DNA from: Owenia fusiformis
Taxonomy: Eukaryota
Assembly: GCA_903813345.2 (NCBI GenBank)
Contig: CAIIXF020000001.1
Coordinates: forward strand, 2,976,001-3,040,000
Direction: 5' to 3'
DNA length: 64,000 nt
Made by a program: the position numbers and the translations under genes. Of the stretch, positions 223-64,000 are shown piece by piece. How positions within the stretch are numbered: the first letter of the stretch is position 1; each line of letters opens with the position of its first letter. Below the pieces are notes generated by a model. The model saw nothing but the letters and a program-made list of their open reading frames with translations. It made no database searches and was not told the DNA's origin.

Positions 223-619
223 CTGTAGGGGTACAATCAACACCAGCGTCTTCGTTGTGGCCGCATCCAGCTGACGATCCCCATGTGTAATGCGGGCACA
301 TATCAAGTGCATCCTCTGACCCTGTACACAACAATCGACTCAATTGGATGACTCCAGATGCGCTGCCGTATTTGGAACATGGATGCGCGACGGGATTGAT
401 TGGTGGTATGTTTAATGAATTACATACAACAAGTGCGTCTCGAACGTCCCATTTATCATCACAAACAGTACCCCATGTTCCGGAATAGAATACCTCTACA
501 CGGCCTGAAGTCCCATCCGCGCGTCCGTCTACTAAACGATAACTTTGACTCTCTACGCCCACAATAAAGCAAACGAAAATGTGTATATATAAGTGATTGT
601 GAACATGGTAAATCATCAT
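223..619 (-). CDS. SRCR (scavenger receptor cysteine-rich) domain exon; gene continues left of the window
   Basis: Translation RLVDG..SGRVEVFYSGTWGTVCDDKWD..DALVVC..L...C.GSE..L..C....G...CGHNEDAGVDC is the SRCR consensus. Phase-1 donor (ACAG|GTATTT) after 223. The hydrophobic N-terminus may be a signal peptide; the exact 5' boundary is uncertain. Confidence 0.9.
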
Positions 620-3921: not shown

Positions 3922-4535
3922 TTTAACGCTTGTAATAGTTCCACCATGTGATTCGGAAATAGGTTAGATGTAATTGATATATTTGTATAGATAATACACG
4001 TTATTGTTGTTTTAATTACATGTCAACACCAATCTAGGCTTATTGTTTCAAAATTATTTGCGCATAAGTTCTGGCATGTTGTTTTTTAATGAAATATGGG
4101 ACTGAACATAAAACAAATGAATTGGTATGCAATTTGTATGGAGTTCATTTACTTTCATCAGTTTAACGATCAAGTCTTGCCAGGAAACTACCAAATTACC
4201 AATTCAGTGAAAAAATAATTTATTGTTATTATAAAAGTAATCTATCTTGCCCATTGAAAGGGTCTGTTTTTCTTAGGTAGTATAAACAGAAAATTTCCAA
4301 ACCAAATGCTTTCTCAATATAAAGTATATCTCCCTATTTCTAATTGCAATTTGAGGGAGCTGTTGACCATTTGTACTTTCACTTATGAAACTCGGACGAT
4401 CAACATGAGTAATGGATGGTTTATGACAGCATTGTATTAACCAGCATAGAACGTACATGCGTATGTCAAAACACTTGGGGTTATAAAACTACCTTCATTC
4501 ATACAGATTATCTCTCCTGAGTGCAAGCTACTGAA

Positions 4536-10500: not shown

Positions 10501-10622
10501 TACAAACTAATAGACAAGACATGCTCCAAGCAACACGAGTGTTACTACAGAAATTCTACAATGGACATAATAAAATATTAAGATATGTCTTGGATAACGA
10601 AAAATATAATTGGGGTTATTGA
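4536..10622 (+). CDS. CHST15: CHST15 (GalNAc4S-6ST)-like carbohydrate sulfotransferase, 6 coding exons
   Basis: Exons 4536-4979, 8745-9171, 9341-9482, 9585-9771, 10009-10168, 10447-10622 splice in frame with GT-AG. Motifs: N-terminal TM, FLQESKNPCW, LRCIPYFYLIGFPKCGTTDL, KEFHFW, ILRDPVERSLSEY, RVALGIYHVFLDDW, MLQATRVLLQKFYNGHN. The symbol denotes family resemblance, not proven orthology. Confidence 0.88.
4995..8468. mobile_element. Non-autonomous TIR DNA transposon with CAC termini and 5-bp TSD (Transib-like) in CHST15-like intron 1
   Basis: About 250-bp inverted arms (4995-5246 vs 8218-8468), termini CACTGGGG...CCCCAGTG, flanked by direct AACTT (4990-4994 and 8469-8473). No transposase ORF seen. 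Confidence 0.85.
5600..7405. mobile_element. Nested cluster of palindromic, putative Crypton-like non-autonomous elements
   Basis: Foldback centred at gttgacctctccagaggtcaac (6225-6246), with arms 6053-6215 / 6253-6426 and a further inverted match at about 5830-5895 / 6558-6635. Two more subterminal copies at 7040-7405. Short peptide DGHFVNVDESDILTLLDDEYSKNT. The family assignment is an inference. Confidence 0.55.
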
Positions 10623-11778
10623 TTCAGACATTGAAAGTTGTGATGTTTATCTATAAACTATATTACCATAACCTTTATTTGGTTGATCGAGATACTATTC
10701 ATCATTAATTTATATTACCATTTGATAGCAACTTGCATGTAATAAGTTTAAATGTGTTTGCTTCCTCATTCTTTTGAATTCCTTTTAGTATCAACGAACT
10801 CCTAATCGATGTCTTTTTATCATGCCACCATTGTGAAATATAGGAGTTCAGAGATTGGATCCATTGCTATAGTGATTTCTAGACATACAGTGGGCATAGG
10901 AGTTGAAGGGGATTTTTTTGATGTTGCGTAAAGAAACCTATCCAGTCCATGTTAAATATTCAAATCAAGGAGTATCCTATAATCAGAAATGTTGGATTTT
11001 TTAGAAATGCACATTACATGGCATGGAACGATAGAAGTAAAAATTAAGTAATATTTCGAAAGATTTTCGAAACTTATCCTCCATCAATCTTTTATGCCTT
11101 CATTTAACAATGAAAAAATTCAGAACCAACTGAGCCCTGGAACATTCATAAACTAGTTGTACTACTTTTATTTGGCAACTACCTCGATCTCCTGTCCCTC
11201 GGGTACCCTCCAATACACAGTCGTCGAAGAACGGCGAAAATCAATTGCATTGTTTACTTTATATAAATATGATGCAGGCAAACCTATAATGCTAATATAT
11301 GGCGACTGGCGATTTTTAGTAACTTAAAGTGAAAGCTGTAAATGTTTTTTTGGAATCACTAAAAACTTTACCGCTAGATATTTGGTAATAAGAAATGCAG
11401 ATTATAAAATACTTTTAATAGTATCTCTGGGTTGGTTCAATGTTCTCGGCTTACTAAAAATACATTATTCCCTGGTTCAAAACCGCTAGACGGACAATCC
11501 GTTACCCCAAAAGTGAAATAATTGCAATTGTGTTTCAAAGAAAACTTCATTGCGTGAACCCCAGCAAACTAATTACATTCAAAGTTCGATAAAACATGTT
11601 TTTAATTAATTTCATGGTTTGAATCACCACCGTTTGATTTGACTTTTATTTGAACACAAAACCTTTAATAGGCCGAATGTCAAACTGTCGCAGATAGTTA
11701 TCTCGTTCAAACAACACACATGGCTGCTTACAAGATGAATCCATATTGTTCCCCAATTTAATCCACAATGCTGTAATT

Positions 11779-14291
11779 ATGATTCCTCGGGTTATATCTA
11801 CAGTTTGGGATAAATTCATAATATTAATCGTACTATCAATCGTTTTGGCGATGCTTTCATTTTCATATACATCATCCTTATTCGATATACACTATATATC
11901 TCGACGCTTCTCGATACGAAATGTGACTAGTAGTGAACAGGTATCTACAACAGAAACCTGTGGAAAAGTGAGGTTCTCAGAATGGCCGTTACCCCTGACG
12001 GCGCTTGCGAGTTATCCCGGCTCTGGCAACACATGGACGCGGTATATACTCCAGCAGGCAACAGGTATGTCGAATCTTGCAAAACATAGGGGCAATATAT
12101 TTGTCAAAATGTTGGAATATGGCGCTTACTTGCTGTATTGATCGAAAGGTGACTGTTGCAACTGATATTTGCTGACTGAAAAAAGGTCCGGTCACAACGC
12201 CCTCTCGCGGTAGAATTAAGGATACAAAAGTATATAAGCATTATTATATCCAAGGTCAAGGTCACATTTCAAGAAAAAAATTAGTTTGTGTGTTCATATC
12301 GATCGACTCACTAATTTATAGGAAACTTGTTACACGTTTTCATTATTTTACTTTGAAATTTATTAACCAAATCGAAACAATATTTACATAATATACTGTA
12401 TGGTAGTAACAGATAAACAGGACAAATTGATTATAGATTTTATAACTCCTAAGTTTCCATATTTCAAACTTGTGTCTTAGGGCAAGTTTACAAATTTCAT
12501 GAATTCTTCTATTCTACCGCATCATGCGCCATGTGTATTGAGATCAACGACGCTATTGTGCTTTCAACCGAACTGTTTACCATGACCATGCAATGTATAT
12601 TGAAAATATTGCTTATTATTTCTTTAAAACTGATTTCTAACTGGTTAATACAATATGTTTCCCACCATCTCTCAAAAGGGTTTGTTTGATATGTCGTACC
12701 CATTAAAAACTAACACGTTTTATAATGTCCATATGTTTTGTATCCTCCAACACATATTCAATTTACTATAACAATCATTTAAACACTACATTGGATCAGT
12801 CTAATTTCTGAAAATAATTGTTTGAAATAATTTACGTGCATTGATTAAATCTTAATGTTTGGAGGATACAAAATATTGGACAGAAGAACCTAAATCTAAA
12901 TGACTTTGAAATAGCGCACATCAAATGTACCTGGTATCAACCTGGTAAAACAACTGATTTTGAAAATATTAATTATCGTAAAATTGCCCCTAAACACTAG
13001 CTGCTTTCTATTGTATTTATTCTCAAAGTCTCCTCCATTGTTGTAAAATAAAAAATTTGTTCGGAAAAAATTTAATTTTGAGCATTAACATATTCTTTGC
13101 ATTTGTTTTACAATTGACAAATAAATAACTTTCTACTTCAATATTACATAATTTACTACACTTTGTCATCAGTGTGTTCAAGTTAAGCCGATGAGAGATG
13201 AGTTGTAGTTTACTGTAATTTACTGAGGTCTACATATATATCTTATATCAGTTCATCTTACACATTCGCATAAATCAATAACATTGTTTTCAAAGTAATT
13301 GTTTTTTTCTATAATGGAGATATACTTTTTGTTCTTGAAGGCATCTACACTGGGTCGGTTTACAGCAATGACGATGAGCTGAGACTTAACGGCTTTCCCG
13401 GAGAGGGAGTTACAAACGGGTCTGTTCTGGTAATTAAGACACATCGTGCTCTTTTATCACATAGAAAGTACGACAGGATAGTGATGATCATCAGAAGTCC
13501 ATTCCAAGCGTATTTGACTGACTTTAACAGACGCAGGGGTCATGGGCATACCGCTATTGTGGAATTGACAGAAGGTTATTGTGACCAGCTTGTTTTGCAT
13601 GTCTATATCTGGTTTTGCACTTGAATAGTTTTTATGATGTCGTAAAATATCATTCAATTAATTGATTTAATGTGCATGTTGGCACTAAACGTTATATCTA
13701 TTAGTGTATCTGTTTATTGACGTAAGGTTATTAGGTGAGGTGCGAGAATAGTGTTTGTTAATATAGAGCTATTTTCATAAACTAGTGTAACTGATATCGA
13801 TCAGTAAAACTAAGAGTTCAAAGGTAACCAAGATGAAGACCTAAAATACTTACAACAGAGCATCCGAAAAGTCATATTAAAATTGAGATTAAATTGAAAT
13901 ATGATATAATTTCTCATGTTTAGGATGGTCTGGGTATGTGCGGCGACAACTTGATACTTGGCGTGCGTTTTACGTCAACTGGATGTCTTACGCTAGGGTA
14001 CCTTTTCACATGATCTTCTACGAGAAACTACGAGAAAATGTGAGATCAGAATTAACCTCACTTTTAGATTTCCTTGAATTTCCAATACACGAGGATAGAA
14101 TTGAATGTCTCATGGAAAGGACAGAAGGAAATTTTAAACGACAAAGTGTGAATAGTGATCGTAGAGACATCTATTCATCAAATGTAACTAAGATTTTACG
14201 TGAACACGTTGCAGAAGTCTGTAAGCAATACACAGAGAAGTATCCTAATAGACACAAACTCGGTGATTGTATTTCTTGGTTATCATTATGA
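11779..14291 (+). CDS. WSCD-family sulfotransferase (no WSC domains), 3 coding exons
   Basis: Exons 11779-12064, 13341-13574, 13924-14291, both introns phase 1. N-terminal TM; [60 protein letters not shown], RIECL...EGNFKR all match the WSCD1/2 sulfotransferase domain. Confidence 0.9.
12480..12990. mobile_element. MITE, PIF/Harbinger-like, in WSCD-like intron 1
   Basis: tta|gggcaagtttac ... gtaaaattgcccc|taa termini. An internal inverted segment (tttgtatcctccaa / ttggaggatacaaa) has related sequence near 22570-22850. Confidence 0.5.
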
Positions 14292-14694
14292 ACATCTGAT
14301 AAAACAATGAAATTACATTACCAGTTTGTTCACATCCGATTTAGTTACATTTTGATGTTATATTGATGTCATCTTCAACTGTAGCTTCTAAATGAGCTTT
14401 ATCGCCCGCTTTATCGTAGATGTTAACATTATTTGATAAATTAATACTTTTGATATTCTCATTTTCAATCGAAATTATTCTTTAAATCGATATACAGTAG
14501 CTCATTAGTTAGATAGGTTCAGTCAACGCCCCTTTTAACAATTATTGGTTTAATTAATTATTGAAGATTTGGACAATTGTTCTAGGAAAATAGGTTGAAC
14601 AGATGTGACATAAATTCCAATAACTATTTACGGACTTGTGAGTAGCATTCGAAAATGCATTTTTATATGTCTAGTCAAAAACAATTTGTGCATT

Positions 14695-16158
14695 ATGTCT
14701 CGTAAAATAAAACAACTTGTTGCGATTGGAGCTGTTATCTGGTGGCCATTTGTATTCGTATTATATTATGCGTCTTTTAGTATCGTGCATGAAGAAAGTA
14801 CACCCAAGGACATTGCTCGTACATGTGGCCCAACAGTAATACCTAATGTGAGAACTGAAACCTTCGAGGAACTTGTTAAAGACACGTTCTTTGCCTTTTC
14901 GGCATTTCGGGACATGCGCATTGTTGACGATAGCAGGAATATGAAACAGTTGATTGACGCGCATGCGCAGTTCGCCGACTCAGAAGGTCAAGTCGGAGTT
15001 GTACGACTTATTGGAGTAGCTTCACGGGATATACCTGATTTGTATTGCAGACTTTCCGATAAAAGCGGAAATGGATATAGCGTTCCTGCAAGACATCACG
15101 CTATGAGCAGAGTGTTAGTTGAGACGATGTATAGAGAATGTACCTATTTTCCATATTTCGTTGACTGTCCACTTTATGAATCACACAAAGACCACGTGGT
15201 AGATGTAGTTGGCATAACTGATAAGATGTGTGGAGAGGTCGACACGTGGTTACCCGTCACTCAAACGTTCTTTGACAATATGCCCGACACTTCCCATAGT
15301 GTCATCATTTGTATGAAAACTCTTTTTGGACTGATAAATCCATCGCGATTAATTGAGTTTCTAGAATTCAGTAAAATATTAGGCGTCGAGAAAGTAGTTA
15401 TCTATGGAGTTTATGATATTGGGCTCGATGTCCGTGATGTATTAGATGGATACATAAAAGAAGGGTTCATCACAATCATAGACTGGAGACTTCCATTCGA
15501 CCCCAATCTTACACACTTCTTTGGTGAAAAAGCAGCTATTAATGATTGTTTATACAGGTACGGCCCACAGTACAAGTATATGTTATTTTCCGATTTTGAC
15601 GAGTATTTCATTCCAAGATCCCACAATACTTTGTATGAACTATTTGAATCGATCGAAGACACCTTTCAAAATCCGTACCATCCAATTGGTGCATTTAGGT
15701 TCCTTCAGACTCGATTTTGCATTGATTCCCCAGAGCCTTCCAACGATAACACTCACCTTGTCACAATGAGCAACACAATGCGTGATGATCCTAGCATCAT
15801 AGCTGCAAAATGTGTCGTAATCCCTAAAAACGTTGTTGAGATGGACGTCCACACACCAAGACAACAAGTGTCCATCAACCACAAACGTCAGATTGTCCCC
15901 GTAGACATGGCACAGATGCATCACTATAGATACCGTGATAAGGAGGAGGAGTACTGCAAGACTGATGATAAAGGTGTGATGCGATTTAACAAAGCACTAA
16001 AGCAGAAGTACAAAGAAGCATCTGATAGGTTCAAGGCCCATACATGGCCCGATAAATTATTTGCTAAGGCATTTCGACCTGTATGTAAACAGCCTGTTGA
16101 GAATATGACGGGCTCTACTGACGATTACTTTTCACGTCTGAATGGGGCAAAAAATTAA
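14695..16158 (+). CDS. Intronless glycosyltransferase family 92 (DUF23; galt-1-like) type II membrane protein
   Basis: ATG at 14695 followed by a TM segment. Motifs ICMKTLFG, LIEFLEFSKILGVEKVVIY, AAINDCLYRY, YMLFSDFDEYFIPR (DxD), KCVVIP..V..MDVH and MHHYR are GT92 signatures. Confidence 0.9.
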   Translation: MSRKIKQLVAIGAVIWWPFVFVLYYASFSIVHEESTPKDIARTCGPTVIPNVRTETFEELVKDTFFAFSAFRDMRIVDDSRNMKQLIDAHAQFADSEGQVGVVRLIGVASRDIPDLYCRLSDKSGNGYSVPARHHAMSRVLVETMYRECTYFPYFVDCPLYESHKDHVVDVVGITDKMCGEVDTWLPVTQTFFDNMPDTSHSVIICMKTLFGLINPSRLIEFLEFSKILGVEKVVIYGVYDIGLDVRDVLDGYIKEGFITIIDWRLPFDPNLTHFFGEKAAINDCLYRYGPQYKYMLFSDFDEYFIPRSHNTLYELFESIEDTFQNPYHPIGAFRFLQTRFCIDSPEPSNDNTHLVTMSNTMRDDPSIIAAKCVVIPKNVVEMDVHTPRQQVSINHKRQIVPVDMAQMHHYRYRDKEEEYCKTDDKGVMRFNKALKQKYKEASDRFKAHTWPDKLFAKAFRPVCKQPVENMTGSTDDYFSRLNGAKN

Positions 16159-34113: not shown

Positions 34114-34845
34114 GGAGGTGAATACTATTTTCGTGAGGGGGATTGAGAGGTGAATACCATTTTTCTGAGAAGGATTGAGAGGTGAATACTATTTTCGTGA
34201 GGGGGATTGAGAGGTGAATACCATTTTTCTGAGAGGGATTGAGAGGTGAATACTATTTTCGTGAGGGGGATTGAGAGGTGAATACCATTTTTCTGAGAGG
34301 GATTGAGAGGTGAATACTATTTTCGTGAGGGGAATTGAGAGGTTAATACCATCTTCCTGAGGGGGATTGAGAGGTGAATACTATTTTCGTGAGGGGGATT
34401 GAGAGGTGAATACCATTTTAGTGAAGGGGATTGAGAGGTGAATACCATTTTTCTGAGAGGGATTGGGAGGTGAATACTATTTTCGTGAGGGGAATTGAGA
34501 GGTAAATACCATCTTCCTGAGGGGGATTGAAAGGTGAATACTATTTTCGTGAGGGGGATTGAGGGGTGAATACCATTTTAGTGAAGGGGATTGAAAGGTG
34601 AATACCATTTTTCTGAGAGGGATTGAGAGGTGAATACTATTTTCGTGAGGGGGATTGAGAGGTGAATACCATTTTCCTGAGGGGGATTGAGAGGTGAATA
34701 CTATTTTCGTGAGGGGGATTGAGAGGTGAATACTATTTTCGTGAGGGGGATTGAGAGGTAAATACCATTTTCCTGAGGGGGATTGAGAGGTGAATACTAT
34801 TTTCGTGAGGGGGATTGAGAGGTGAATACCATTTACGTGAGCGGG
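34114..34845. repeat. G-rich minisatellite, 32-bp unit, about 23 copies
   Basis: Unit gagaggtgaatac(t/c)atttt(cg/tc)tgag(g/a)gggatt repeated head to tail with no unique spacers. Confidence 0.97.
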
Positions 34846-35348
34846 ATATTGATTGGGTGGGACAATAATTTTTTTATATCAAAAATAGTCACCGGGAAGT
34901 AGTAATTTGGGATTAAACTTGCTTAATATATTCCTAGGGAATAGAGTATTGAATAAATATTCTCATTGATTTATTCCAATAGATACCTAGCAACAGTGGT
35001 TACCATGGCAATGGTTGCTAGGGGTCCGTCGAGCAGCTAAAAATGACAAGAAATCAAGAAACTTTTTACCATGTAACCATACCTATCTTGTATATGTGAC
35101 ATTTTATATGTCTTTGGCTGAAATAATCATGAATTCTAAAGTCGATGTTAACAAAATACAATTAAATCAAGGGAATACCAGTATTAGAAACCTACAGGGG
35201 CCTAAAGGAGGTGTATGGACGAGATAATGTGAAGCCTTCAACGATGTTGGTATCCTGCCTTTTGAAATAATGGAAGCCACACAGTTTTTGATGCTTCTGG
35301 TCGCAAACCTGAAATACTGCTCCCAGCAAAGGGGGTTGTACAACTCAT

Positions 35349-48883: not shown

Positions 48884-51800
48884 TAGTATGACAATATACA
48901 GTGTAGGAAGGTTTCAGCTACTACATTCCTGTAATAGGGAAGAAATTTTAACAACATTTCGTAAACGTAACATATATGTATAAAACGGATGCCAATATGT
49001 ATCATTTGGATCCAGAACGGTAACAAATGGATGCTATCATAAATTATACTTTATTATGATGATATATTTACAGAAGAACAACTGGCCAGATTTCCTGTGT
49101 ATCAATTGCTTAGTTAATCATTCCTCATTCAGCGAAGCAATTGAACACACCCTTACAAGACAGCCTCAAGAAGAATTGAAAATTGATAGACTGGATATAA
49201 ATCCATAAACTTGAAAATGCTATTACAGAAGAAAAATTAAGGTTTCATCCCTCATACAGTAAACTTGAAAAAATGGGTCCATATCATGTCATGTAATGAT
49301 GACGATGAAAATATTGAAATCAGGTACAACAATCAAGAGAATTCCAAGATTCATCAAACAACTCTTTTACACAAAGATCAAGATCTAGAGCCATTAACAT
49401 TCTTTGACAGTGAAAGGTACATATGCTACATTGCTTGTGATTTGGCTTATAAAATATCTGGCCTCTTATATTTTGATATGCTTCTCTGCATGTAATTTCC
49501 GAAAAAAATAACGTGGCTAATAGTCCTTAAATCACAACAGGCCACAGGCTTATTGCACAAAAAACTAAATAATCTGAAATATACGACTGTCATTCGTATT
49601 GTTTCCTTATAATAAGGAGTTTAAGCTTGCATATAAAATCGAAACGCCAACCTATACGTCTGAGCAATTGCCCTTACAAATGCATCGCTTACTTAGGTTC
49701 GCGTTTAGGTTGTTAAAAACAGTGCTAGCTTAAAGTCTCTATTATTGAACAATGGCCTTTTGATTTCTCGTTTTCTATGTTTTACTGACACCATATGACA
49801 GTGAACTTTAACAGTTCAGCCAAAAATATACCAAACTACACACGATGTGTAAAGAAAGACTATTGTCTAATACTACCTTAATTAAAAAGTCCAAACCATT
49901 CATTTACTTTATTGTTATTTTGCTATACATCTTATCACTCTTCTCGTTTTCTTTATATTGCTACCTTTCATATCGTTGGTTGTTTACTGTAATTCCAACA
50001 AATAACACATGGATTAATGCCTGACGATGTAAACACATAAAAATGCTCCTACGTTTTTTCAATTACATCAATTAAACATTTACAAGCATTCTGCATAAAT
50101 GTGTGAGTATATCAATTTTACGTTTTGATGGATGCGTTAAATACTTTCATATTACACTATTAATTTAATTTACACTATAGCGCCATCGAGCAATGCTAAA
50201 TGTCAACAATGAAAAAAATAATTTTATTTCAAAAAGCACGTTTCATATTAGGAAAGAAAACCTACGTTTACTCGCTTCTAATTTAGGATGATATTGTTAA
50301 TGTTAGCCGCACTGCCGTTAGTTAACAGTCAAGGTACGTACTATTGCAAATGTTTTGTTTCATTTTATTTATAAATTGCATATAATTGACTTAAAACTAA
50401 TCAAGTATCATCTAAAATGTTAAATCATAAAATTACAAAACGTGAGTCTATTCATTTTCACCATATAAATTGCATGCTCTATAATCGATATGGCATTTGA
50501 TGCCATTAATATTACGTGAACTGTTATTTCATCCTTTACATGCATCAGAATGGAACTATGGAAGTTTAGGTAAGTAATTATTGATATAATAAACATAATT
50601 TAGATATAAGTAACCGATATCAAAGATAATGATCAGTATTTTAATGTAAATGTCAAAATCACTTGTACATGAAATTGAAATTGTGCGATGGAACAAAATA
50701 TATTGATTCGGAGGGTTGTAAATTAACAAATGAATATGTATCTCCATGGATACCTTAAGAGAATGACTCGCATAATATTGGGTTGTTTCATCACTTTTCC
50801 TTATGACTTAAGCATTTGATGTCTAACAATATATCTAAGGGATTCTAGAGAGATATGCATACTTGGTATATCCCTTGAAATAAACTGAAGATTTTGCACA
50901 CTTTACGTTGTGAAACTTGCTGGTCAAAAGAAACGCCCCGATTCCAAGTTTTGTTAACGTTTAAGTTTATGTTCCTAGCACATTTCCAGCACTGTTTAAT
51001 AAACAGTGCTGTTTGGTGATTGGCAGTGTGCCCTCTTTAAGTAAAGTTTTATTTTAAACTATTTGGAAGTAGCCTCCATGTCATAGATTCGGCTCCCTTA
51101 TTGAATGTTGCAGTGGAATTTGAAGGTCAGAGTCTCAATGATAATATATATTATCAGGAATAATTCATCTTGCCCGTTGGCCATTTTGACTTTTAAACAT
51201 TCCTTTGTACTGACACCATACATTAGCCAGTAAATGCCATGGCCTCCCACGTCTGTTATAGACAAGGTATGGACGTGACCTGAGGCCTTGGCATACGTTA
51301 TAAAATGTTTAATAATCTCCCAGTTTACTAATGTTGGTAATGCCTAGTGTATATGTAAATATACTATCTTGGCTACTTACTCATGCAAATGACAAGATAG
51401 TTGTAAAACACAAGAAACTTTATTTTACTGTATACCCGGGCCTCAGGACGTGACCTCCCTACTTTCAAATGGCGTTTTGAGGTTTGTGCATCATTCTTTC
51501 GGCCCAGTCAACTTGTAGAATATAAAGCCTACCTGACCTAGATAACTTAGCTGTCATAGCATATTCAACAGGTCAATAAAGTCCCAGGCTCAATTCTTGT
51601 TTGAGAAGTAAAAGTATTTTATGGATTTACCCTTTAATTGTGCCTTTTTTGATAAATTGGCCAAAAAAGGCCTTAAAGCCCAAAAGGCCCACTTTGAGGC
51701 CTTACAAAAAATGTTTGGCCCAAAAACTATGGGCCCCAAAAACTATGCCCCCCCCTCCGGATCCGCCACTGATCCTTGGTTGATTGAAGGTGTTGTTTGT

Positions 51801-52132
51801 GCATATAAGTATTTGTATGTATCGGGTATATAAAGTTGGAACTAACATTATAAATGGTAATAGAGATATGCATACAATCACCGTGAAACAGATACATTGA
51901 AACACTATCCATCATTCTGTTTTCAGATAGTTTATGCTAATATTTTTTATAGAAATGCAATTATTTGAAGTGATACAAATGATGTGACATGAATCATCAT
52001 TATGAAATTTATGTTTTCTTAATAGGTCTACGCACAAATGAACATGCTTACAATTAAAATGTCTATGTTATACATAACATTAACCAGAAGACCCAGAAAG
52101 AGCTACATCTTACCGCCTACTATTAATTACAG

Positions 52133-55100
52133 GGCCGTCTACATGGGGGGATGGTTTCTCTCAATGTGGGGAGCCGAACCAGTCACCTGTGGACATTGAC
52201 ACAGACAAGTTAGAAACGGATTCGAGTTTAAATGCATTCGGATTTCATAACTTTGATAAAAAAGCTAACAATGAGCTCGAAAATACAGGACATACTGGTG
52301 AGTATTTTTCAATTATTTCTAATGTCAAGAGTTTCGGAAATATTTTATGTTTTTCAACATGTTTCGTCATGACTAGAGTATGACCGATATACAGGGTCTT
52401 AACAATGTACCCAAAAGTATACCAACAGCACAGATAATCCAATCAACATGTTTGTGATGTAGCTGAAGCATGCACTGAACGATGAGAATGATGATGTTTA
52501 AATCGATCATTCAATCAAATTACAATATATTGAGTTAAATTTCAAATAATCCCTCAAAGAGTCTCGATGCTTCTTTTGATAATTTGCCCTTACTTTGGGA
52601 AGATTGCAAGTGTGAGGTTGTCCGGGCATTTGATATATTTGTCTGTGAAGATGATAATTTAAAGATATCATTAATCTTCGGCAATGGTGGCACTTTATTA
52701 GACTCCAGATGAAATCTGGAGTCTATTGTTTTTGCCTCTTTTCTTATTAGACTCCAGATGAAATCTGGAGTCTATTGTTTTTGCCTCTTTTCTTTTTCTT
52801 ATTCTTCTTATTCTTCTTATACTGATCGAGTTTTCTCAACAACTATAAGACATCTTTTCAAGACTATTATATGGTCAATATAGGTATAGTATCTAGTTGG
52901 TGGGAAATGGGGTCAAATTTTTATCTAGGTCAAAGGTCAAGAACTAGGTCAAATCCAGTACTTTGTCACTTTTTTCGATTTTCTCGGTCGTCCTTCAATA
53001 TTTTCGATCCGGGTTTTTTTCATTGTGTTCCTTATAAAAAAGTAGGAAACCTAGGGTCGATTTAGTTTTTTGATATCTCAAACCGATTTTGAGATATCAG
53101 TGTCCGAAAACCAGGTCCAAAAAAAGGTTCTCCGAATCAAATGTGCAGGATATTAGTCTTATAGGAAATTTTCTCAGGATTCCGAATCTGAAAACGAAAT
53201 TTAGATCTGACTTCCGGTTTGGAAGTTATGGCGTTTTGAAAACTCAAAAATCGCTAAATTTGGTGCCCATGTTAAGTCAATGGGAAAAAATATTTTTTTG
53301 AAGTGAAAAATACGGAATATAGACTGAGTTCAGCTTCATATAATCCAAGCCTTTAAAAGAAGGGGACCTCAAAAGCCATCTAGCTTCACAATTTGGACAC
53401 CGAAATGCCTAGGTCAAAATCTAGGTCAAATTCATAGGTTTTCCTTATTTTTTCGATTCTGACACTACACTTTAATTATATTCTTCGAAATTGTGTATAC
53501 ATGTAGCCAAGAATATGCTAATAGTGTTAGCCTTTTGCCGTCAGAAAGTATTTTGACCCACTTTTGAGATATGGTGTCCGAAAAGTAGGTCAAAATAAAA
53601 AGTTCTCCAAATTGAATATATGAGTTATGAATTAAGGGTAGAATTCTGTCAGGAATCCGAATCTGCAAACCAAATTTCGATCCAACTTCCGGTTCGGAAG
53701 TTATGGCGTGTCCGAAAAGTAGGTCAAAATAAAAAATCTCCAAATTTAACGTATGAGTTATGAATTAGGGCTAGAATTTTGTCAGGAATCCGAATCTGCA
53801 AACCAAATTTCGATCTGACTTCCGGTTCGGAAGTGATAGCGTTTTGAAATTTCGAGAAAAATCGATCTGATGGTATCCTGATAGAAAGTCAAGAGTAGAG
53901 AAGAAAATATTGAAAAATTCATCCATCCTTCCTATCTCATCCTACCCTATCCTTCCTATCTATCCTTCCTTCATATCAATTCCTTCCTATCCTTCCTATC
54001 CTATCCTATCCTTTCTTCCTATTCTATTCTATCCTATCCTTCTTTCTTATTCTATCCTATCGTTCTTTCCTATTCTATCCTATCCTACCTTCCTATTTTA
54101 TTTATCCATCTCTTTCTAGATGACTCAGCTTATTCTGGATGACTCGGCTAAAAAAAGTCTAGATCTGGAGTCTGAAATTGAACTTCGTTCAATTTCCAAA
54201 ATCTAGTTCTTCTTATTCTTCTTATTCTTATTATACTGATCGAGTTTTCTCAACAACTATAAGACATCTTTTCAAGACTATTATATGGTCAATATAGGTA
54301 TAGTATCTAGTTGGTGGGAAATGGGGTCAAATTTTTATCTAGGTCAAAGGTCAAGAACTAGGTCAAATCCAGTACTTTGTTATTTTTTTCAATTTTCTCG
54401 GTCGTCTTTCGATATTTTCGCTCGTTTTTTTTAGTCATGTTCCTTTAAAACAAAGCTAATTCCGAAAGGCAAATCGTTTTTTGATAACTCTAACCGTTTT
54501 TGAGATATGGCGTCCGAAAAGTAGGTCACAACAAAAAGTTCTCCAAATTCAACATATGAGTTATGGAATAGGTGTAGAATTTTCCTAGGTATCCGAATCT
54601 GCAAACCAAATTTTGATCCGACTTCCGGTTCGGAAGTTATGTCGTTTTAAAAGCTCAAAAATCGCTAAATTTGGTGTCCATGTTAAGTCAATGGGAAAAA
54701 TGATTTTTTTGAAGTGATAAATACGAAATATAGACTGAGTTCAGCTTAATTTAATGAAAGCCTTCAAAAGAAGGGGACCTCAAAAGCCATCTAGCTTCAG
54801 AATTTGGACACCAAAATGCCTAGGTCAAAATCTAGGTCAAATTCAAAGGTTTTCCTTATTTTTGCGATTCTGACACTACACTTCAATTATATTCTTCGAA
54901 ATTGTGTATACATGTAGCCAAGAGTGTGCTAATAGTGTTAGCCTTTTGCCGTCAGAAAGTATTTTGACTCACTTTTGAGATATGGTGTCCAAAAAGTAGG
55001 TCAAAATATTAAGTTCTCCAAATTTAACGTATGAGTTATGAATAAAGGGTAGAATTTTGTCAGGAATCCGAATCTGCAAACCAAATTTCGATCCAACTTC

Positions 55101-58100
55101 CGGTTTGGAAGTTATGACATTTTGAAAGCTCAAAAATCGCTAAATTTGGTGCCCCATGTTATGGCAATGGGAAATAAGGTTTTTTTGAAGTGTAAATTAC
55201 GAGATTTAGACTAAGTACAGCTTAAAATAATGAAAGCCTATGAAAGAAGGGGACCTTGAAGGCTACTTAACTTCAAAATTTGGACACCAAAATCCCTAGG
55301 TCAAAATCTAGGTCAAATTCATAGTTTATTCTTATTTTTGCGATTCTGACACTACACTTTAATTATATTCTTCGATATTGTGTATATATGTAGCCAAGAG
55401 TGGGCTAATAGTGTTAGCCTTTTGCCGTCAGAAAGAATTTTGACCCACTTTTGAGATATGGTGTCCGAAAAGTAGGTCAAAATAAAAAGTTCTCCAAATT
55501 TAACGTTTGAGTTATGAATTAAGAATAGAATTTTCTCAGAAATCCGAATCTGCAAACCAAATTTCGATCCGACTTCCGGTTCCGAAGTTATGGCGTGTCC
55601 AAAAAGTAGGTCAAAATAAAAATTCGCCAAATTTAATGTATGAGTTATGAATTAGGGGTAGAATTTTGTCAGGAATCCGAATCTTTACATCAAATTTCGA
55701 TCCGACTTTCGGTTCGGAAGTTATGGCGTTTTGAAATTTCGGAAAATCGATCTGATGGTATCCTGATAGAAAGTCAAGAGTAGAGAAGAAAATATTGAAA
55801 AATTCATCCATCCTTCCTATCTGTTCCTATCCTATCCTATCCTTCCTTCGTATCCTTTCCTTCCTATCCTTCCTATCCTCTCCTATCATATCCTTTCCTC
55901 CTATTCTGTTCTATCCTATCCTTCTTTCTTATTCTATCCTATCGTTCATTCCCATTCTATCCTATCCTACCTTCCTGTTTTATCCATCCATCTTATTCTG
56001 GATGACTCGGCTTATTTTAGATGACTGGGCTTAAAAAAGTCTGGATCTGGAGTCTGAAATTGAACTTCGTTCAATTTCCCAAGTCTAGTTATATTTAGAG
56101 TTCGAACTTGAAAGAGAAAAATCTTTTCTGTAACTTAAACAGAAGATCAAGATGTGTCTCATTGGCCCACTCCTACTATCCTGTCCCACTCCTGTCCTAG
56201 ATCATTTATATAAAGATGAAGAGAAAGGGACCTAATGTAGGTCCTTTGGGGACACCACATCGTCACATTCCCTTTGAGTATTCTTTGACAAAAGTAGTTT
56301 ATTTCCTGTTACTGATATAGCCTTTGAACTCATCAAGGGATTTTTCCTGGAATCTACGAAGATCCAGTATATGTCGAAGAATATAATGATCAACCTATCA
56401 TACACTTTCCTTACATCCAAAACTCTTAAAATGATGTTTTTCTCCATTGTTATCCTACGATTATCTTGGGAAGTCAAAAATGTCTAACAAGTACATTCAT
56501 TCTTTCCAAATTTATTCATACGAATAATTTTGAACTTTTCAATTAACTAGCAGTGCAATTCTGTTATTTATAATATATTGTCAAAAGTGATCATGGTCTG
56601 CAATCACTAAAGCACCATTAATTCGTTTTATTTATTTCAATTCATCTCGAAAGATAAGAGGTGAGAGCGATAGATTGATTGAGTAAAGTAGCTAGATCAG
56701 AAGTAAATTTACCACTCCAATTCATAATTGTTTAATTAATTAGTGAAATATCACCCTACCTCTGAATCTTTTAAATTATCAATCATTTTTTGAACTTTTC
56801 GACTGTTACTCGTCTTAAAGATACACTTTAATTGAAAGAATGTGATGTTTTTTTCAAGATGGCAGGATAAAGGACAAAGGAACATAAGAACATAAACTGT
56901 TCCAAACCGTTCGGCAAATCGATATTAGAATCCCCATTAAGAAAAATATCTCACTTTCCTTTTAAACTAAAGGCTTAATTTGTCATTAAAATATCAGTAT
57001 TAACATAAAAAAATTTGCAACCAACTGTAATCAGGAAATGCCTGTTACATTCATATTGATTTCAATAGTAATAACTTGCACATCATAATCAAATCATATC
57101 TCGTTTCATACCCAATATTAGTTACTATAAATGCCACCACATCCGCCTGTTCTAACAGTTTTACAGCAGATAAATTCTGAATTGAATCTTTGTATTTGTT
57201 TTCAGATTCATTGCTCTCATTAAGCCGAATTTCAAAGACAACAGATATGCAAATGTTCTTTAGTTTGTGTTAGAAACCATAGTATGTAGTTAACGATAAT
57301 TATAATACATTCCCCATCCCTGTATTTCAATGAGAAATGATGCGAGTAGAAATAATCTTTATTTACGTCATTAGATATTCAAAATCCACTCAAAGTGATG
57401 CCATATTTGAAATCTATATGTTAAAGTACATCTAGAAATATGGTTTAAAAATTGTTTGTCAACTTAATTCTTTTTGAAAATATGACTTCTAGTTTGGAGA
57501 GATTCTCCATAGACCCCAGTTACAAAATCACAAAAAATAAAATATCTTTTCTTGTATTGAACATTTCCTTTTACTGAAGATATTTTTAATTTGCACAACT
57601 ATTAGATACATAACAGGTGATATGAAAACTGAACCACTAAAAGAGATGTAATTTAAGTTCAAGGGAGCTTACTATATCCGCCTTGATATCTGGCCCGAAC
57701 CTGGTGGTGAAACTGGTAACTACCTCCTCGCATTTCAGCAATTATGGTGCTTGGAATTCGTAAACGAGTGTACGTCTACAATGGCGGACTGGAGGGAAGC
57801 TATGTCGTAGTAGGGTTTCACTTTAGGTGGGGATCCGAGCATACGGTTGACGGCAATCGGTCTCCACTCGAGGTACATAGATACTAGTTTGCTATACTCT
57901 AGTTTAAAAGTTTCATACTTGACATTGGACATTACGGACTCATACAATATAGATAGAAGAAAAATTAAGATCTAACCTCCCCGGCTAACCTCGTTTTTTA
58001 CCTTTATATTTACCTTTAATCACCCAATTTTTTTCTTTTACTACTGATTGTTCCGTCCTGTTTTGAACTATAGCAGTCATAAATGCAATTTCAGTATTGT

Positions 58101-61100
58101 AGCTAAGCACGACACCTTTACTAAGACGACTTTTTCCTTTCATTTCAGTTGCAAATTGTATGTTTTAACAGGAAATTTCCAACAATGAACGACGCCATTG
58201 AAGCTTCGAATACTGAACCAGACAGTGTTATCAACTTAGCCGTGCTTTTTGAGGTATATTATTTTAGCAAATCATTAGCATCCAGATCCAAGTCGTACAA
58301 ATATTTTTATATTTTGCACACAAAAATAAGAAATAATGAATGTATTTCCAGATATCCTCTTCTGATAACAAAAACTTGGACCCACTCGTGACTGCACTCG
58401 AACAGGTACAGACTGCAGGTAGGGTCGACACATGGGGTTCGACAGTACACACAGTCAGTTATATGGATCGTTTGCTACTTTTGATAATAAATGTGAACGG
58501 TTGCAGAAATGAAAACCAAAGAAACTTGAAATAAAACTTGAATGGTGATACGATATTTCTAGATACAAGTGTTTTATATGCCAATATTCATATCATAAAG
58601 TATTTGATGATGCATATCAATTATTTATCACCATAGGTTCAAAGGTGAAGGTCAGAGGTCGTCTCCGATTTAAAGATCTACTGCCATTCTCTGCAGCGAC
58701 AAATTATTACAGATACCAGGGAAGGTTTTCCAACCCACCATGTTTTTATACCTTGTGGACGGTTTTCTCGGACACTGTTTTGATCTCGGAGACACAGGTA
58801 AGATGCAATCAGTCATAACATGCGTTACATTATATTTCACTTCATTACATTACACCCTACTGCTTTCGGTGAAACTTGTGATATATACCAGAGACAACGT
58901 ATAGAGGATTGTTCCATCAATTCTTTAATGCTAGATGAAGTTGACTCTCTTATGGTATACAAATAAACCATAATTCTTTTTTTTCAATACATCATATTAC
59001 ATATGAATTTATCCACACTTTTAATGGATCGTGACCACTTCAAATTGCTAAATTGCAATTCTTTGCAGCTCGAAGCGTTCAAAAGGCTAAAAGACAAAGA
59101 TGGGAATCCATTGAAGGATACATTCAGACCGACCCAACAACTTGGAAATCGTGTTATCAAGTCAAGCATGCCACCACTAAGACAGTTCGACCCTGGTGTT
59201 CCCAATAAATGTATATCTTATATAGCGGTCAAGTAGTCGATTGAGACTAGATATACTTTTTTGTAAAACTTATATATCCTGAAATGATTGGACATACATG
59301 TTTTCATTTTATTGTGGATGATCCAATGTAGCCTTGCCCAAGTCTATGTCTTTTTTATTTTTCATTTTTATTTAAATTATATTGAAGATCAAGATACGTA
59401 AAAGAAAGTATCGTCTTGGGCAAGGCTAGATCCAATACTAAACAACCGATTCATCATCTGAATAAAAATGTTTTGAAAATTATTTACAAATTCCAATACT
59501 TTAAAGGATATTTTAACAATATACCAAGAAAATATAGGAAAAACATACAGATACGTTTTTTCTTCAATGTTACTATTTTTGTGTTATATAAATGAAGCCT
59601 GTGTGGATGTGTTTCTGGTCATTGACGAGAGCTGCTCTGTGTACGATGACATGCACAAAGTGAAGGAGTTCCTCTTGGATCTGGTGGATAGAATTATTAT
59701 CGGGACTGATGCCGTGTTAATGTCGCTTGTAAGGTATGGTCTTCATCTAACACATAAATGCCTCATCTGTTATATTCAATGTCACTCATCGACTCATTCC
59801 CCAAACAGTGATTTGATAACTACTTTCATCATCAGGAAATAAACAGAATACGTATATGCCACTCATTTGTCATAAATCTATAACTTTACACATGTACATC
59901 GACGGTTGCCGTTCTCACTTTTTACAGATATAGTGCCCCAGTCACTATGAACTTTTACCACAGCAATACAACCAACAATGATGTTGTCATGCGACTCATC
60001 GACACACAACCTTTAGGACAGCGGACCACTTGTAGGACGCATACCTCAGAAGCACTCAAGTTCAATTTGAATAGGTTTAAGATGGTTTTTAATGATATAT
60101 AGATTCACATAACATCATGCCATCTTTATTTGAAAAAAAACTAATTTTGCATTAAATGTTAATTTTAATTGTTGATAATTTATAACGTAATTATTCGTAT
60201 AACTACCTGTAATTCAAATGATTGTGTCCTTCCTATATATATTTCTCATTTAACATTTATTTCGATTTTGAGGTACTTTAATTATGATTTATGATTATTA
60301 CTGTTGTTTGTAGGTTCTTTGGCCTACATGGAGGCCAGAGGAACGAAACGACACAGCGTGATTATGGAATCAGAACAGTTGCTCCTGACGTCATGATAAT
60401 AATAACAGACGGAATCTCCATCCCTATGAGAGCCCGAACATGTAAGGTTTTAATTTATCATCAGTTACTGAAATATCCAAATTAACACATTTGATGAGCT
60501 AAGATTATTATCCAATGATAATTTCCATATCTGACCTGACCATAATTATATTGAATAATTTATTATTGTATGAATCTCTATTTTTGTTTCTCCAATAGCC
60601 GCGCTTGCAGAAGCCGCCAAACTGAGAGGACATGGAGTCGAGATTTACACCATCGGCTTGAAAAATCAAAACGCACGCAATGGATATGAGGAGCTGCATG
60701 GATTTACTGGGGGCAAAGATGACCACGTGTTTGATATCAACAATGATGGTTTAGCAGGTCATTTCGCGCATATCATCAACTCTTACGACACGTGTACAGG
60801 CGAAAAAAGTATGATCAGATATCAATTTGTGGTACGAATCAGTATTGAACGTTCAAGTAATAGTATATTCAGATTAAAGCATTAATATCAAGATTCTTTT
60901 ACAAACTTTTACAAACTTTTCATGACATTTCTGATAAATGACCAAGATGAGTACTAACTATTATTTAATTTTTCAATTAATTTATGTAACATAGATACAC
61001 AAATATAATATAGACAGGAAATCACTTGTCTACATCTAGATTGTTCTGACCAACTTGACATTGTGTTGGTAATAGACACGTCACAGAGTTTACTGACATC

Positions 61101-63053
61101 TTCTGAGTGGGATCGGATCACAAAGAATCCAGACAATCACCATGAGATCAACTCTGAACATCTGATTGCAGTAAAGGAATTCTTTAAACAGTTATTAGCT
61201 GCAATTCCCATTGGTTTGTGGCTTACTGAATCTTGTATTTTGAACTAAAGACATGTATTATATGTTTCAAATATGAATTATGCGATGTAATCAATTTAAT
61301 AACAATTCATGAAAGATACGCATGTAGAGCCCCAAGCAACATAGAAAAAACATAGACACCTATCGAGTGTATTTAATAAAATAAGTAAAGTACTGAAATA
61401 GTTTGGTCAAAACAATTCGACAAGAGTTGGACTACTTGGGTAGCATCTAACGCATTTTGTTTAATACAGGGATCGATAAAGTTAGAGTAGCCATCGTTTC
61501 ATTTGATGAGGTTGTGAGAATCCACCAATACCTTGATGACACAACGGACTATGCAGGAACAAATGATATATTGACCAATAGTGTCATAGATTATACGGGT
61601 GTAGGGACACGTACAGATGCAGCACTTCGATATGTTCTCAACAGGTGAGGGGTCGAACGACCACCAATTGTCACTTTTTGTAATTAAACAATAAAGGACG
61701 ATTCTCGGTTTGGAGAACGAAGTTCATGAATCTAAATGAGCACTATCCCTGCTTCGGACAAATTTGATTTTTTTTACATAATATAGATTTGAATGTCTTC
61801 TTTTGAATAGTCATAATTTAATTTGGGTAATATTTCTAGATTTTTCGCAAAAAAATATTAGCGCAGTACACTGATGAACTTTTTTCCCCAAATCGAGACT
61901 TGTATTTTATTGAATCGGTCTAATTGAGCGTTACCCCTGCTTCAGACCAATTTGTTATTTTTACATCTTGTAGATTTAAATGTCTTCTTTTGAATATTCA
62001 TAGTTTAATTTGGGTAATATTTCTATATTTTTCATGAAAAAAGTTATTAGCCCAGGAGACTGTTCTCCAAACCGAGAATCGTCCTTTAGTGTTGAAAAAA
62101 GAATAAATTGGTCAAGAAATTAACTCATAAGCGCAGAATAGTGGTTCAGAGAAAACAGCATTTTAACATTTTAGTTCTCGTCGGTTCCAGTGGTATATTA
62201 ATATTTAAAACATGATATAAAATCATTTCGACCTTGATAGGACAACAATATTTTAACGTTTTTTGAAAGTTGAGGATATTTAGAAAATATTTGTTGGAGA
62301 AAAATTGGCCACCTGAGTGAGATCATAGCGTATACTCACGACATCACAAATTTGTAGAAATGCTTTACAAGTCTGTATATGCAAAAAATCATAGATTGAT
62401 TGGTTGAAATAATTTACAGGGTGGTCCAAAAAAGGGAACCCCTGCAACAGGCTACATTTTTGTGAATGAATACATGAATTGGCTCATATTATCACGTATA
62501 ATTTCTGCAAATTTCAAGACTAAGAAAAATGTATGGTACCAACATAAATTTTAGACCTTTCTCTACAACATGTGAAAATAAAAAAGAATTCCTGCAAGTA
62601 ATAAGGGAAATATGGCCAGTTGCAGGGGTTCACTTTTTTGGACCACCCTGTAAATGCCTGATCTATTCAGAGGAGTAGAGAAAGTATTGTGTTTTACAGG
62701 ATTAAACTGTTGTATTTGATGACCTATTTCCGCACTAGCGGCACATTCAAACATTTGAAAATTATAACATAAAGAACTTTTAAAGTCACATTTTAAAAAA
62801 ATGTCTCAAATAGTTTTCAATTATGAAAAGTAATAATTCAACTCTATTTTACTTTACGGGACGGGACTCATTTGCTTCAAGGGTGTTGAAAAAGGATCGT
62901 GGAGACCGAGTTGATGTCAACAACTTCATAATGCTGGCAACTGACGGTGTGGCCTACCCATGCTGTACAGCTAGTTGTTGTCATATGAGCACAGGCACTA
63001 TACAATGCCCCACCACTGACTACCCATGCATAACTCAAGAAGATGCGACAAGG
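52133..63053 (+). CDS. Predicted acatalytic alpha-carbonic anhydrase domain followed by at least 2 VWA domains (5' exon not found; 3' end beyond the window)
   Basis: CA exons: 52133-52297 (GPSTW..C..QSPVDID..NTGHT), 57739-57872 (GGLEGSY..FHFRWGSEHTVDG), 58149-58253, 58352-58418, 58637-58797 (LLP..YYRYQGRFSNPPC), 59069-59195 or 59210 (FRPTQQLGNR). VWA exons: 59598-59733 (DVFLVIDESCSV), 59928-60074, 60314-60441 (IIITDG), 60599-60808, 61040-61213 (DIVLVIDTSQS), 61470-61644, 62882-~63053. All junction phases are compatible. Confidence 0.82.
52694..56090 (+). mobile_element. Tandem pair of Helentron-associated (HINE/DINE-like) elements with internal 134-bp repeats and CCTAT microsatellite
   Basis: 5' hairpin tagactccaga-tgaaa-tctggagtcta (duplicated at 52699 and about 52748), TTC/TTA microsatellite, 134-bp core units, (CCTAT)n tracts at 53925-54115 and 55810-55990, and a 3' ggagtct plus hairpin gaaattgaac-ttc-gttcaatttc ending CTAGTT at about 54208 and 56090. 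Confidence 0.8.
59329..59428. mobile_element. Very short MITE
   Basis: tagccttgcccaag ... cttgggcaaggcta 14-bp perfect inverted repeat in the CA/VWA junction intron. Confidence 0.55.
61692..62088. mobile_element. MITE with 27-bp perfect TIRs and two internal ~190-bp tandem units
   Basis: taaaggacgattctcggtttggagaac / gttctccaaaccgagaatcgtccttta; the internal unit ccctgcttc.gac.aatttg... starts at about 61747 and 61935. Confidence 0.75.
62417..62650. mobile_element. Tc1/mariner-type MITE with TA TSD
   Basis: ta|cagggtggtccaaaaaagggaacccctgcaac ... gttgcaggggttcacttttttggaccaccctg|ta. Confidence 0.85.
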
Positions 63054-63137
63054 GTAGTTTTCGTAATCATACTTTATTAATTAGGTTGTGTGATCTTGAG
63101 GTCCAAAGTGCATCGTTCCATAAGAAGTTCATATTCA

Positions 63138-63830
63138 TTATCGCAAACAATTTCAGAAGGTTATATCTTGGATTATGACTATTTTCTGACAATGAAGACA
63201 AGTTTATCTTTTAGATCAATTCATTATCTCAAAGAAAATTATGCACAGTAATAATACATTCAAACAAACTCGGAGATATTTAACTAGCAATTAACCCATC
63301 AACACACTTTTTGACCCCATTTTGAAGATGTTGACCCCATTTTCACCAAAAATGCAATCATTTTTTACAATGTTTAATGCATTACTATTCTTTATTTTGA
63401 TGTATCAAATAGTTCTTGAAAGAAAAATTTAATTGCATTAAGATAAGTGTTCCCCATGTTATTTCTCCATTGAAAAATCCCATGCTATCCATTGGTTTCA
63501 GTTAATTTTGGTCATCCAAATTGAATATCTTTAAAGTCCCGGGAGCAATCAAATTTTCCTTTTAGGAAATCGAACATTTCTCAAACCACATTCTAATTAT
63601 GCATTCAATAATATAATAAAAGGTTGCATTTTTGGTGAAAATTAGGTCAACATTTTTGAAAAAGTATGTTGATTGGTCCATTGCCCCTTCAATATCACTT
63701 AGGTCTGATTAACTAAATTATCATTATACTTTTCTTGAAGATAATGAATGGATCTAAAAGATACACCCATGTTCATGATAAAAAAATATTCATAATTCAA
63801 GTTAGAATCGTTTGAAATTGTTTGCGATAA
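63138..63830. mobile_element. Degenerate foldback MITE
   Basis: ttatcgcaaacaatttca...cttttagatcaattcattatct is mirrored by agataatgaatggatctaaaag...tgaaattgtttgcgataa. Confidence 0.7.
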
Positions 63831-64000
63831 CCTACGTGCTCCTTTTCAAAATTTGGGTCCAAGGGCCCACAATTTTTTGTAGAACTTTGTAGAAATCTGG
63901 ACCCACCCTTGTTAGCTCTTGCAATCCGCCATTGTAGTTATTCTTAATTATCTTATGATTAGAATCGGTATAAACCAAATAGTATACCAATTACATTGCA

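Follow-up and report, generated by a model that had tools for sequence, protein, structure and literature searches.

The region analysed here is a 64,000-nucleotide stretch of the genome of the tube-dwelling marine worm Owenia fusiformis (contig CAIIXF020000001.1, positions 2,976,001 to 3,040,000 of the forward strand), hereafter referred to as the window. It contains, at positions 50288-63053, 15 of the 18 coding exons of a gene that we named gene 1, and the predicted 754-residue product of this gene consists of a signal peptide, an alpha-carbonic anhydrase (CA) domain and two VWA domains (for von Willebrand factor type A). In the original prediction, made for positions 52133-63053, six small exons were proposed to rebuild a CA domain and to be spliced to the VWA exons. 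All six were found where they had been placed, in a single frame and with GT-AG ends; the whole domain matches the Pfam family PF00194 with an E-value of 7e-62 over profile positions 2-253, and four of the six exons match it singly. The six CA and seven VWA exons of this interval form one open frame, using either 59195 or 59210 as the last CA donor.

The signal-peptide exon and the downstream exons, which had still been sought, were identified by comparing the region with the DNA located downstream. Two exons (50288-50333 and the 21-nt exon 50549-50569) lie upstream of the previously proposed start, and three more are located just past the end of the window. The N-terminus is signal-like, with a mean hydropathy of 2.31 over the first 13 residues. 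No transmembrane segment and no hydrophobic tail of the glycosylphosphatidylinositol type was found in the protein, in which the highest 19-residue window hydropathy is at most 1.67. The features of gene 1 are as follows.

50288-50333 (+): coding exon 1, ATG and signal peptide (residues 1-15), phase-1 donor; same 46-nt exon in paralogue 2
50549-50569 (+): exon 2, encoding W-x-Y-G at the N-terminus of the CA domain; paralogue 2 shares this 21-nt exon
52133-52297 (+): CA exon with Cys34, QSPVDI and the His64 equivalent (H76) (Pfam, threading)
57739-57872 (+): CA exon, His94 kept (H105, 57819), His96 to Arg (R107, 57825), loop shortened by six residues before S-E-H (alignment)
58149-58253 (+): CA exon, His119 to Gln (Q124, 58152) (alignment)
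58352-58418 (+): CA exon, 67 nt (threading)
58637-58797 (+): CA exon, Ser197 to Arg, Thr199 to Ser (S211), Thr200 to Asn, Cys215 (Pfam, alignment)
59069-59210 (+): last CA exon with the linker; the phase-1 donor following 59210 is homologous in all seven loci and is the one in the public model, with 59195 as an alternative
59211-59597 (+): 387-nt phase-1 intron between CA and VWA1, containing the stop codon met on read-through (59234-59236), a single AATAAA (59461) and an ATG in frame (59567)
59598-59733 (+): VWA1 exon a, Cys282, metal ion-dependent adhesion site (MIDAS) motif D-E-S-C-S (D290, 59624) (Pfam)
59928-60074 (+): VWA1 exon b, C-R-T-H-T with MIDAS Thr363
60314-60441 (+): VWA1 exon c, TDG with MIDAS Asp407
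60599-60808 (+): VWA1 exon d, Cys483 at its end, phase-1 donor (Pfam)
61040-61213 (+): VWA2 exon a, Cys489, MIDAS D-T-S-Q-S (D500, 61075), then an insert of about 20 residues (Pfam)
61470-61644 (+): VWA2 exon b, G-T-R-T-D with MIDAS Thr592 (Pfam)
62882-63053 (+): VWA2 exon c, TDG (Asp625), then an insert with six cysteines
G000:C1:3040002-3040122, 3040325-3040453 and 3040743-3040774 (+): last three coding exons, past the window end, the third with the stop codon

An AATAAA is located at G000:C1:3040975, 3' of the stop exon. The 5.4-kb intron within the CA part (52298-57738) contains two copies of an element of about 1.5 kb with internal repeats of 133 bp and 476 bp, together with (ATCCT)n tracts.

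The gene had been described as hidden, a description that has to be withdrawn. The 638-residue exon model is contained letter for letter, with donor 59210, in the public record CAH1772386.1 (P0001 hereafter; 754 amino acids, Owenia fusiformis, "unnamed protein product"), and this identity establishes that gene 1 is real and annotated. A second record from the same species, CAH1772387.1 (P0002; 751 amino acids, also "unnamed protein product"), is the product of a tandem paralogue, gene 2, and is 74% identical to P0001. Both records, retrieved with one exon as the query, carry PF00194 and PF00092. When the proteins were threaded on the DNA, all 18 exons of gene 1 and all 18 of gene 2 showed GT-AG ends and identical phases. 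Phase-1 introns flank each of the CA, VWA1 and VWA2 domains (after residues 22, 280, 487 and 744); phase-1 module boundaries are the usual mark of shuffled extracellular modules.

Genome searches and the examination of 200 kb of DNA revealed seven loci in the Owenia genome at which a CA domain directly precedes a VWA domain on the same strand. Gene 2 is located about 20 kb from gene 1, and the five further loci (loci 3-7) are at C1:14.79 Mb, C3:27.36 Mb and C4:10.63, 10.75 and 10.81 Mb. The second VWA domain is whole in five loci and represented by its first exon only in a sixth; at the C3 locus it was not found in the DNA examined there. Beyond the tandem pair, the paralogues are 32-46% identical.

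Splicing between the CA and VWA exons

As originally stated, the donors 59195 and 59210 are both in phase 1, as is the acceptor at 59598 that they fit, and read-through beyond them meets the stop codon at 59234-59236. The former was rejected as the main donor, since 59210 is the homologous position in all the loci. A phase-1 T/GT donor occurs at the homologous codon of the last CA exon in all seven loci and reads GTGAGT or GTAAGA in five of them; the donors of the tandem pair are gtatat (gene 1) and gtaaat (gene 2), and in the public model of gene 2 the phase-1 donor employed lies 6 nt upstream of the homologous position. Similarly, the first VWA exon is in phase 1 and immediately preceded by AG in 7/7 loci, the unusual AAG acceptor being common to both tandem paralogues. 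Two differences (59581 and 59586) are present in the pyrimidine tract of this weak acceptor in a contig of set X1. Moreover, public models unite CA and VWA at four loci (P0001, P0002, P0004 and P0152).

Two RNA runs (X13 and X14) and two contig sets (X1 and X5) were compared with window positions 57600-64000, and no splice joint of gene 1 was found in any of them over this interval. The contig sets run through introns and therefore behave as DNA. Many loose-ended RNA reads, with a depth of up to about 540, are located on intronic dispersed repeats (57600-57735, 61690-62090 and 63200-63800), and the flanking exons have none; these reads thus appear to derive from repeat copies transcribed elsewhere.

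The alternative to a fused product is that transcripts often end after the last CA exon, by read-through to 59236 and polyadenylation at 59461, the VWA exons forming a separate or alternative unit. Several observations lean against the fusion: no read joining CA to VWA was found in the approximately 6% of each raw RNA run that was compared, with zero depth over 57814-59953; the gene 1 donor (gtatat) and the AAG acceptor are weak; and the public model P0156 of locus 5, which is flagged as partial, ends within the last CA exon. The weak donor and this CA-only partial model, as well as the AATAAA at 59461 and the in-frame ATG at 59567, could be cited in favour of two products, but AATAAA occurs in 10 of the 17 introns of gene 1, this one included. 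The read-through tails past the last CA exon are unrelated to one another among the seven loci, unlike the conserved donor codon. As to the start, the original prediction that no separate one is evident requires qualification, because the ATG exists; it is followed only by a 7-residue hydrophobic run derived from the pyrimidine tract, an ATG of this kind is absent in four of the seven loci, and no signal-peptide exon was found ahead of VWA1. Taking into account also the joined public models, we consider two products quite improbable, although a minor CA-only isoform of gene 1 may exist. On the evidence of homologous exon ends, gene 1 very probably encodes one fused protein, with the CA part spliced to the VWA part.

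The CA and VWA domains

The zinc site of the CA domain had been predicted to be dead, and the alignment agrees. Compared with CA IV and catalytic relatives, the domain of gene 1 has His94, Arg96, Gln119, Arg197, Ser199 and Asn200, i.e. His94 is kept and the changes H96R, H119Q and T199S are present. It also keeps His64, Glu106, Glu117 and the Cys23-Cys203 pair, and is without six residues of the loop after Trp97. The alpha-CA fold of a catalytic CA is present, but the His94/His96/His119 triad is broken, and the gatekeeper pair of Thr199 with Glu106 is reduced to Glu106, with Ser at 199. The zinc site is broken, and the domain is predicted to be non-catalytic. For comparison, a sample of 148 CA domains was compiled from the top matches to P0001 (excluding P0016, P0153-P0155, proteins of more than 900 amino acids and domains of less than 200 amino acids), and the H/H/H triad was observed in 133 of them. 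The triads of the seven loci are H/R/Q (gene 1), H/R/H (gene 2), N/N/T, F/F/M, I/K/Q, I/N/Q and K/N/Q, none of the three ligands being kept in loci 3-7, and Thr199 is replaced in all seven loci by Ser or Pro. Arg at both 96 and 197, as in genes 1 and 2, was found in only 2/148 sampled domains and is absent from the other five loci. The short loop is shared with four non-family CAs of the sample, which group outside the family in the tree described below. The CA domains are net acidic and the mature protein is mildly acidic (isoelectric points of 5.9 and 5.0).

The ratio of nonsynonymous to synonymous substitution rates between genes 1 and 2, obtained by a pairwise counting method, is 0.28 for CA (bootstrap 0.19-0.40), 0.16 for VWA1 and 0.15 for VWA2. 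The dead CA domain is under purifying selection and is not decaying.

The structure prediction proposed earlier gave an intact CA fold. In the AlphaFold2 model, the predicted local distance difference test (pLDDT) values of the CA domain are mostly 85-97, and the template-modelling (TM) score to CA II is 0.88, with a root-mean-square deviation (rmsd) of about 2 A. Of 48,161 chains compared, the CA-like domain of PTPRG matches best (Z 35.1, rmsd 1.5, 244 residues aligned), followed by CA XIII, IX, XII and IV (Z 30.5-32.4) and then by vaccinia D8 (Z 29.2). The full-length model has a predicted TM score (pTM) of 0.53, which suggests loosely linked domains. A complex prediction of CA with VWA1, run without an alignment being used, gave no verdict, with a score of 0.00. 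An extra unpaired cysteine, residue 127 of P0001 (58161-58163), is located in the CA domain and is absent from the paralogues; it could allow dimerisation.

PF00092 matches two stretches of P0001 (E-value 1.5e-37). The MIDAS motif is defined as DxSxS...T...D, and its residues are complete in both domains of gene 1, as predicted: DESCS, T363 and TDG (D407) in VWA1, and DTSQS, T592 and TDG (D625) in VWA2. The motif of VWA1 is complete in 7/7 loci and that of VWA2 in all five loci for which its three exons were found; DTSQS or DTTQS is present in the six loci where the first VWA2 exon was found. All but one of the 15 cysteines of P0001 recur in P0002 and P0152. Cys282/483 and 489/738 probably form the end-to-end pairs typical of VWA domains. 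Additionally, all seven loci have a cysteine within D-x-S-C-S and another located two residues ahead of the MIDAS Thr, and this pair (C293-C361 in gene 1) could link the two metal loops of VWA1. VWA2 of P0001 has a six-cysteine insert after TDG, and Thr-rich tracts with a mucin-like look follow VWA1 in loci 3, 4 and 7. The structural matches of the VWA domains are generic: VWA1 matches TEM8, TRAP, collagen VI and von Willebrand factor (Z 15-19), and matrilins are also among the matches. VWA2 has TM scores of 0.64-0.72 to VWA models.

Distribution of the family and neighbouring sequence

A phmmer search of 1.84 billion representatives detected 6,097 proteins at E <= 0.001, of which the best 150 were taken (cut-off 130 bits). 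Among P0001 and these 150, both domains occur in four proteins, all from Owenia, whereas 126 carry CA only and 21 VWA only; a very divergent fusion from elsewhere could lie among the 5,947 matches below the cut-off. Word-indexed homolog searches returned only Owenia records (2/7,997 and 3/8,000 scored), with a poor recall that missed three known paralogues or P0001 itself, and an atlas search covering clusters of 50 or more gave no cluster with CA and VWA. No description of a CA-VWA fusion was found in the literature at the level of titles and abstract beginnings, most subscription journals being outside reach. The claim that the architecture is undescribed therefore stands as far as these sources go, with the correction that it is already in databases: it is apparently restricted to Owenia and new, made from known parts and deposited without description.

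In a FastTree tree, which was subject to the same exclusions as the sample above and contained no labelled CA-related protein, the five CA domains of the family for which proteins were available group in a single clade with a Shimodaira-Hasegawa-like support of 92. Limulus and coral CAs, the nearest neighbours, were not accepted as the source of the family because of their weak support. The family may have arisen once, by the shuffling of phase 1-1 VWA modules behind a secreted-type alpha-CA that lost catalysis, followed by duplication; a clade support below 95 and long branches weaken this view. The genome contains roughly two dozen alpha-CA loci, many of them in tandem pairs (C12, C3, C2 and C5), with two divergent ones at C3:28.85 and 28.89 Mb. 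Five unnamed proteins of 1,700-2,300 amino acids (P0011, P0030, P0031, P0054 and P0073) consist of 6-10 tandem alpha-CA domains.

Upstream of gene 1, the window contains a run of glycan-modifying genes (2773-16158). It includes sulfotransferase-like open reading frames at 2773-3963 on the minus strand (Pfam E-value 1e-4) and 13905-14291 on the plus strand (2e-5), apparent further sulfotransferase exons recognised by eye and without a Pfam match (8652-9266 and 11698-13624), and an intronless 514-residue reading frame of glycosyltransferase family 92 (14614-16158, E-value 6e-35). An exon for a scavenger-receptor cysteine-rich (SRCR) domain (92-634, minus strand, Pfam E-value 2e-25) and an array in which a 32-bp unit is repeated 23 times in tandem (34115-34847) are also present.

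Relation to known proteins and proposed function

Zinc-less CA domains that act through binding are found in CA8, CA10 and CA11, which are single-domain proteins, unlike the Owenia fusion. The closest counterparts of the CA part are PTPRG and PTPRZ (PDB 3jxg, 3jxh and 3jxf), in which an extracellular domain of alpha-CA fold, with an incomplete zinc site, is likewise N-terminal to other modules and is described as a binding module for contactins (PMC8773835). These receptors have FN3, transmembrane and phosphatase domains, whereas only the CA and VWA families were matched in the Owenia protein; as its identity to the PTPRG domain (about 34%) is near that to catalytic CAs, orthology was not concluded. 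For the VWA part, the mussel byssus protein PTMP1 (PDB 4cn8) is also a secreted marine-invertebrate protein with two VWA domains, reported to bind byssal collagens (PMC4754843). PTMP1 has no CA domain, and the Owenia VWAs add the cysteine pair at the MIDAS loops and the six-cysteine insert. It aligns across both VWA domains (Z 16.3, rmsd 14.8, 346 residues aligned, 18% identity).

Non-mammalian CA VI-pentraxin is a secreted alpha-CA joined to an innate-immunity module that was added by exon replacement (PMC5723433), but it is highly active, whereas the CA of Owenia is dead and its partner is VWA. In the mollusc shell matrix, nacrein and Pif97 or BMSP provide CA and VWA that associate, and the VWA domain of Pif pulls down nacrein in the pearl oyster (PMC11291548); the two can thus cooperate within a matrix that is secreted, and a fusion of them makes sense. 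Nacrein and Pif97 are separate chains, the former catalytic with G-x-N repeats and the latter with chitin-binding domains. In the Owenia protein no chitin-binding Pfam match was found at E <= 0.01, and neither a G-x-N repeat nor an acidic low-complexity tract was found in P0001. Finally, the vaccinia D8 ectodomain (PDB 4e9o) reuses the CA fold as an adhesin, with a basic crevice that binds chondroitin sulfate E (PMC4256255), of which Arg96 and Arg197 in genes 1 and 2 are reminiscent; D8 is a viral membrane protein with 23% identity, the Owenia CA domains are net acidic and loci 3-7 are without the two arginines. The Owenia protein most likely works, by analogy, like a PTPRG-type CA module combined with a PTMP1-type VWA pair, apparently belonging to neither family.

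Of the original suggestion of a secreted adhesion or matrix scaffold, one secreted product with a non-catalytic CA and two intact MIDAS motifs has good support from the annotation, the exon phases shared by seven loci and the purifying selection; the scaffold role is our best inference. In this proposal one gene, with CA spliced to VWA, would make a secreted, disulfide-bonded glycoprotein of 754 amino acids with three binding modules. Each VWA would bind Mg, Mn or Ca at its MIDAS and hold on to a fibrous partner by an acidic residue of the latter, in the way that PTMP1 binds collagen, and the emptied CA pocket or surface would provide a third, metal-independent site, as in PTPRG or D8. The protein would cross-link components of a secreted matrix, most plausibly the tube lining or cement, mucus or cuticle. 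The tube of an Owenia congener is described as secreted fibre layers with sediment grains (PMC4375521), and in the non-calcareous annelid tube proteome of PMC8476170 VWA domains are given as enriched and CA as lacking. Two points speak against this proposal: VWA2 was predicted only moderately (pLDDT 43-76), and the VWA domains match collagen VI, matrilin, TEM8, TRAP and von Willebrand factor about equally, PTMP1 not ranking above them, which makes PTMP1 an analogy and not the closest relative. Overall, we hold a role as matrix cross-linker, not enzyme, to be an evenly balanced proposition, and one that becomes slightly favoured once the fused protein is granted.

The same fused protein might instead serve recognition or defence, as an opsonin, an agglutinin, or a particle binder of the egg coat or feeding mucus, its diversified CA pockets recognising different ligands and its VWAs recruiting effectors or aggregating targets. 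An expansion confined to one lineage, whose paralogues outside the tandem pair share only 32-46% identity, zinc-ligand positions that differ in every paralogue, and the precedent of CA VI-pentraxin (PMC5723433) are consistent with such a role, but we regard it as rather unlikely, given that no positive selection was seen in the single pair tested (genes 1 and 2), that no immune-type domain beyond VWA is present, and that the linkers of loci 3, 4 and 7 are Thr-rich and mucin-like. A biomineral-matrix protein, i.e. a fused counterpart of the nacrein-Pif97 complex that would control carbonate or phosphate deposition or glue to calcareous grains, is suggested by a core biomineralisation toolkit that lists both CA and VWA (PMC13425148), by the binding of nacrein to the Pif VWA (PMC11291548) and by the mildly acidic mature protein. 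The CA is non-catalytic, and the chitin-binding, G-x-N and acidic low-complexity features are missing. Owenia is not known to have a mineralised skeleton. The biomineral association raised in the original prediction is weak, since tubes of organic fibres and sediment are described for the congener (PMC4375521) and the CA would be unable to supply bicarbonate, and we consider such a role improbable. Least probable, by a little, is that the CA still binds bicarbonate, CO2 or another small anion and so switches VWA adhesion with pH or carbonate, or that weak catalysis persists through substitute ligands. The CA-like domain of PTPRG, the top structural match, has been linked to bicarbonate sensing (PMC8773835), and gene 1 keeps His64, His94 and Glu106 and gene 2 His94 and His119; loci 3-7 have lost all three His ligands, no transmembrane or signalling domain is present, and the domains appear loosely linked.

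Returning to the matrix cross-linker, a more specific and decidedly speculative version is that the family comprises oweniid-specific tube or mucus adhesives, in which the CA pocket has been rebuilt as a diversified ligand site wired to disulfide-locked MIDAS domains and, in genes 1 and 2, lined with Arg for sulfated glycans or anions as in D8. Such proteins would be a one-chain version of the pearl-oyster CA-VWA complex; they would also represent underwater glue components of a new class, from the annelid lineage that branched off first.

The importance of the finding is limited by the single-species distribution and the existing public annotation. Within these limits, VWA is a new domain partner for the short list of CA fusions, which includes FN3/PTP, pentraxin and, in a ciliate protein, aldo-keto reductase (PMC13344042), and the family is another example of a CA converted into a putative binding module and retained by selection. 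It also supplies, ready-made, seven dead active sites with natural variation among them. If the proteins are components of tube or cement, they would become concrete candidates for oweniid tube building and a handle on VWA-based marine adhesives beyond mussels.

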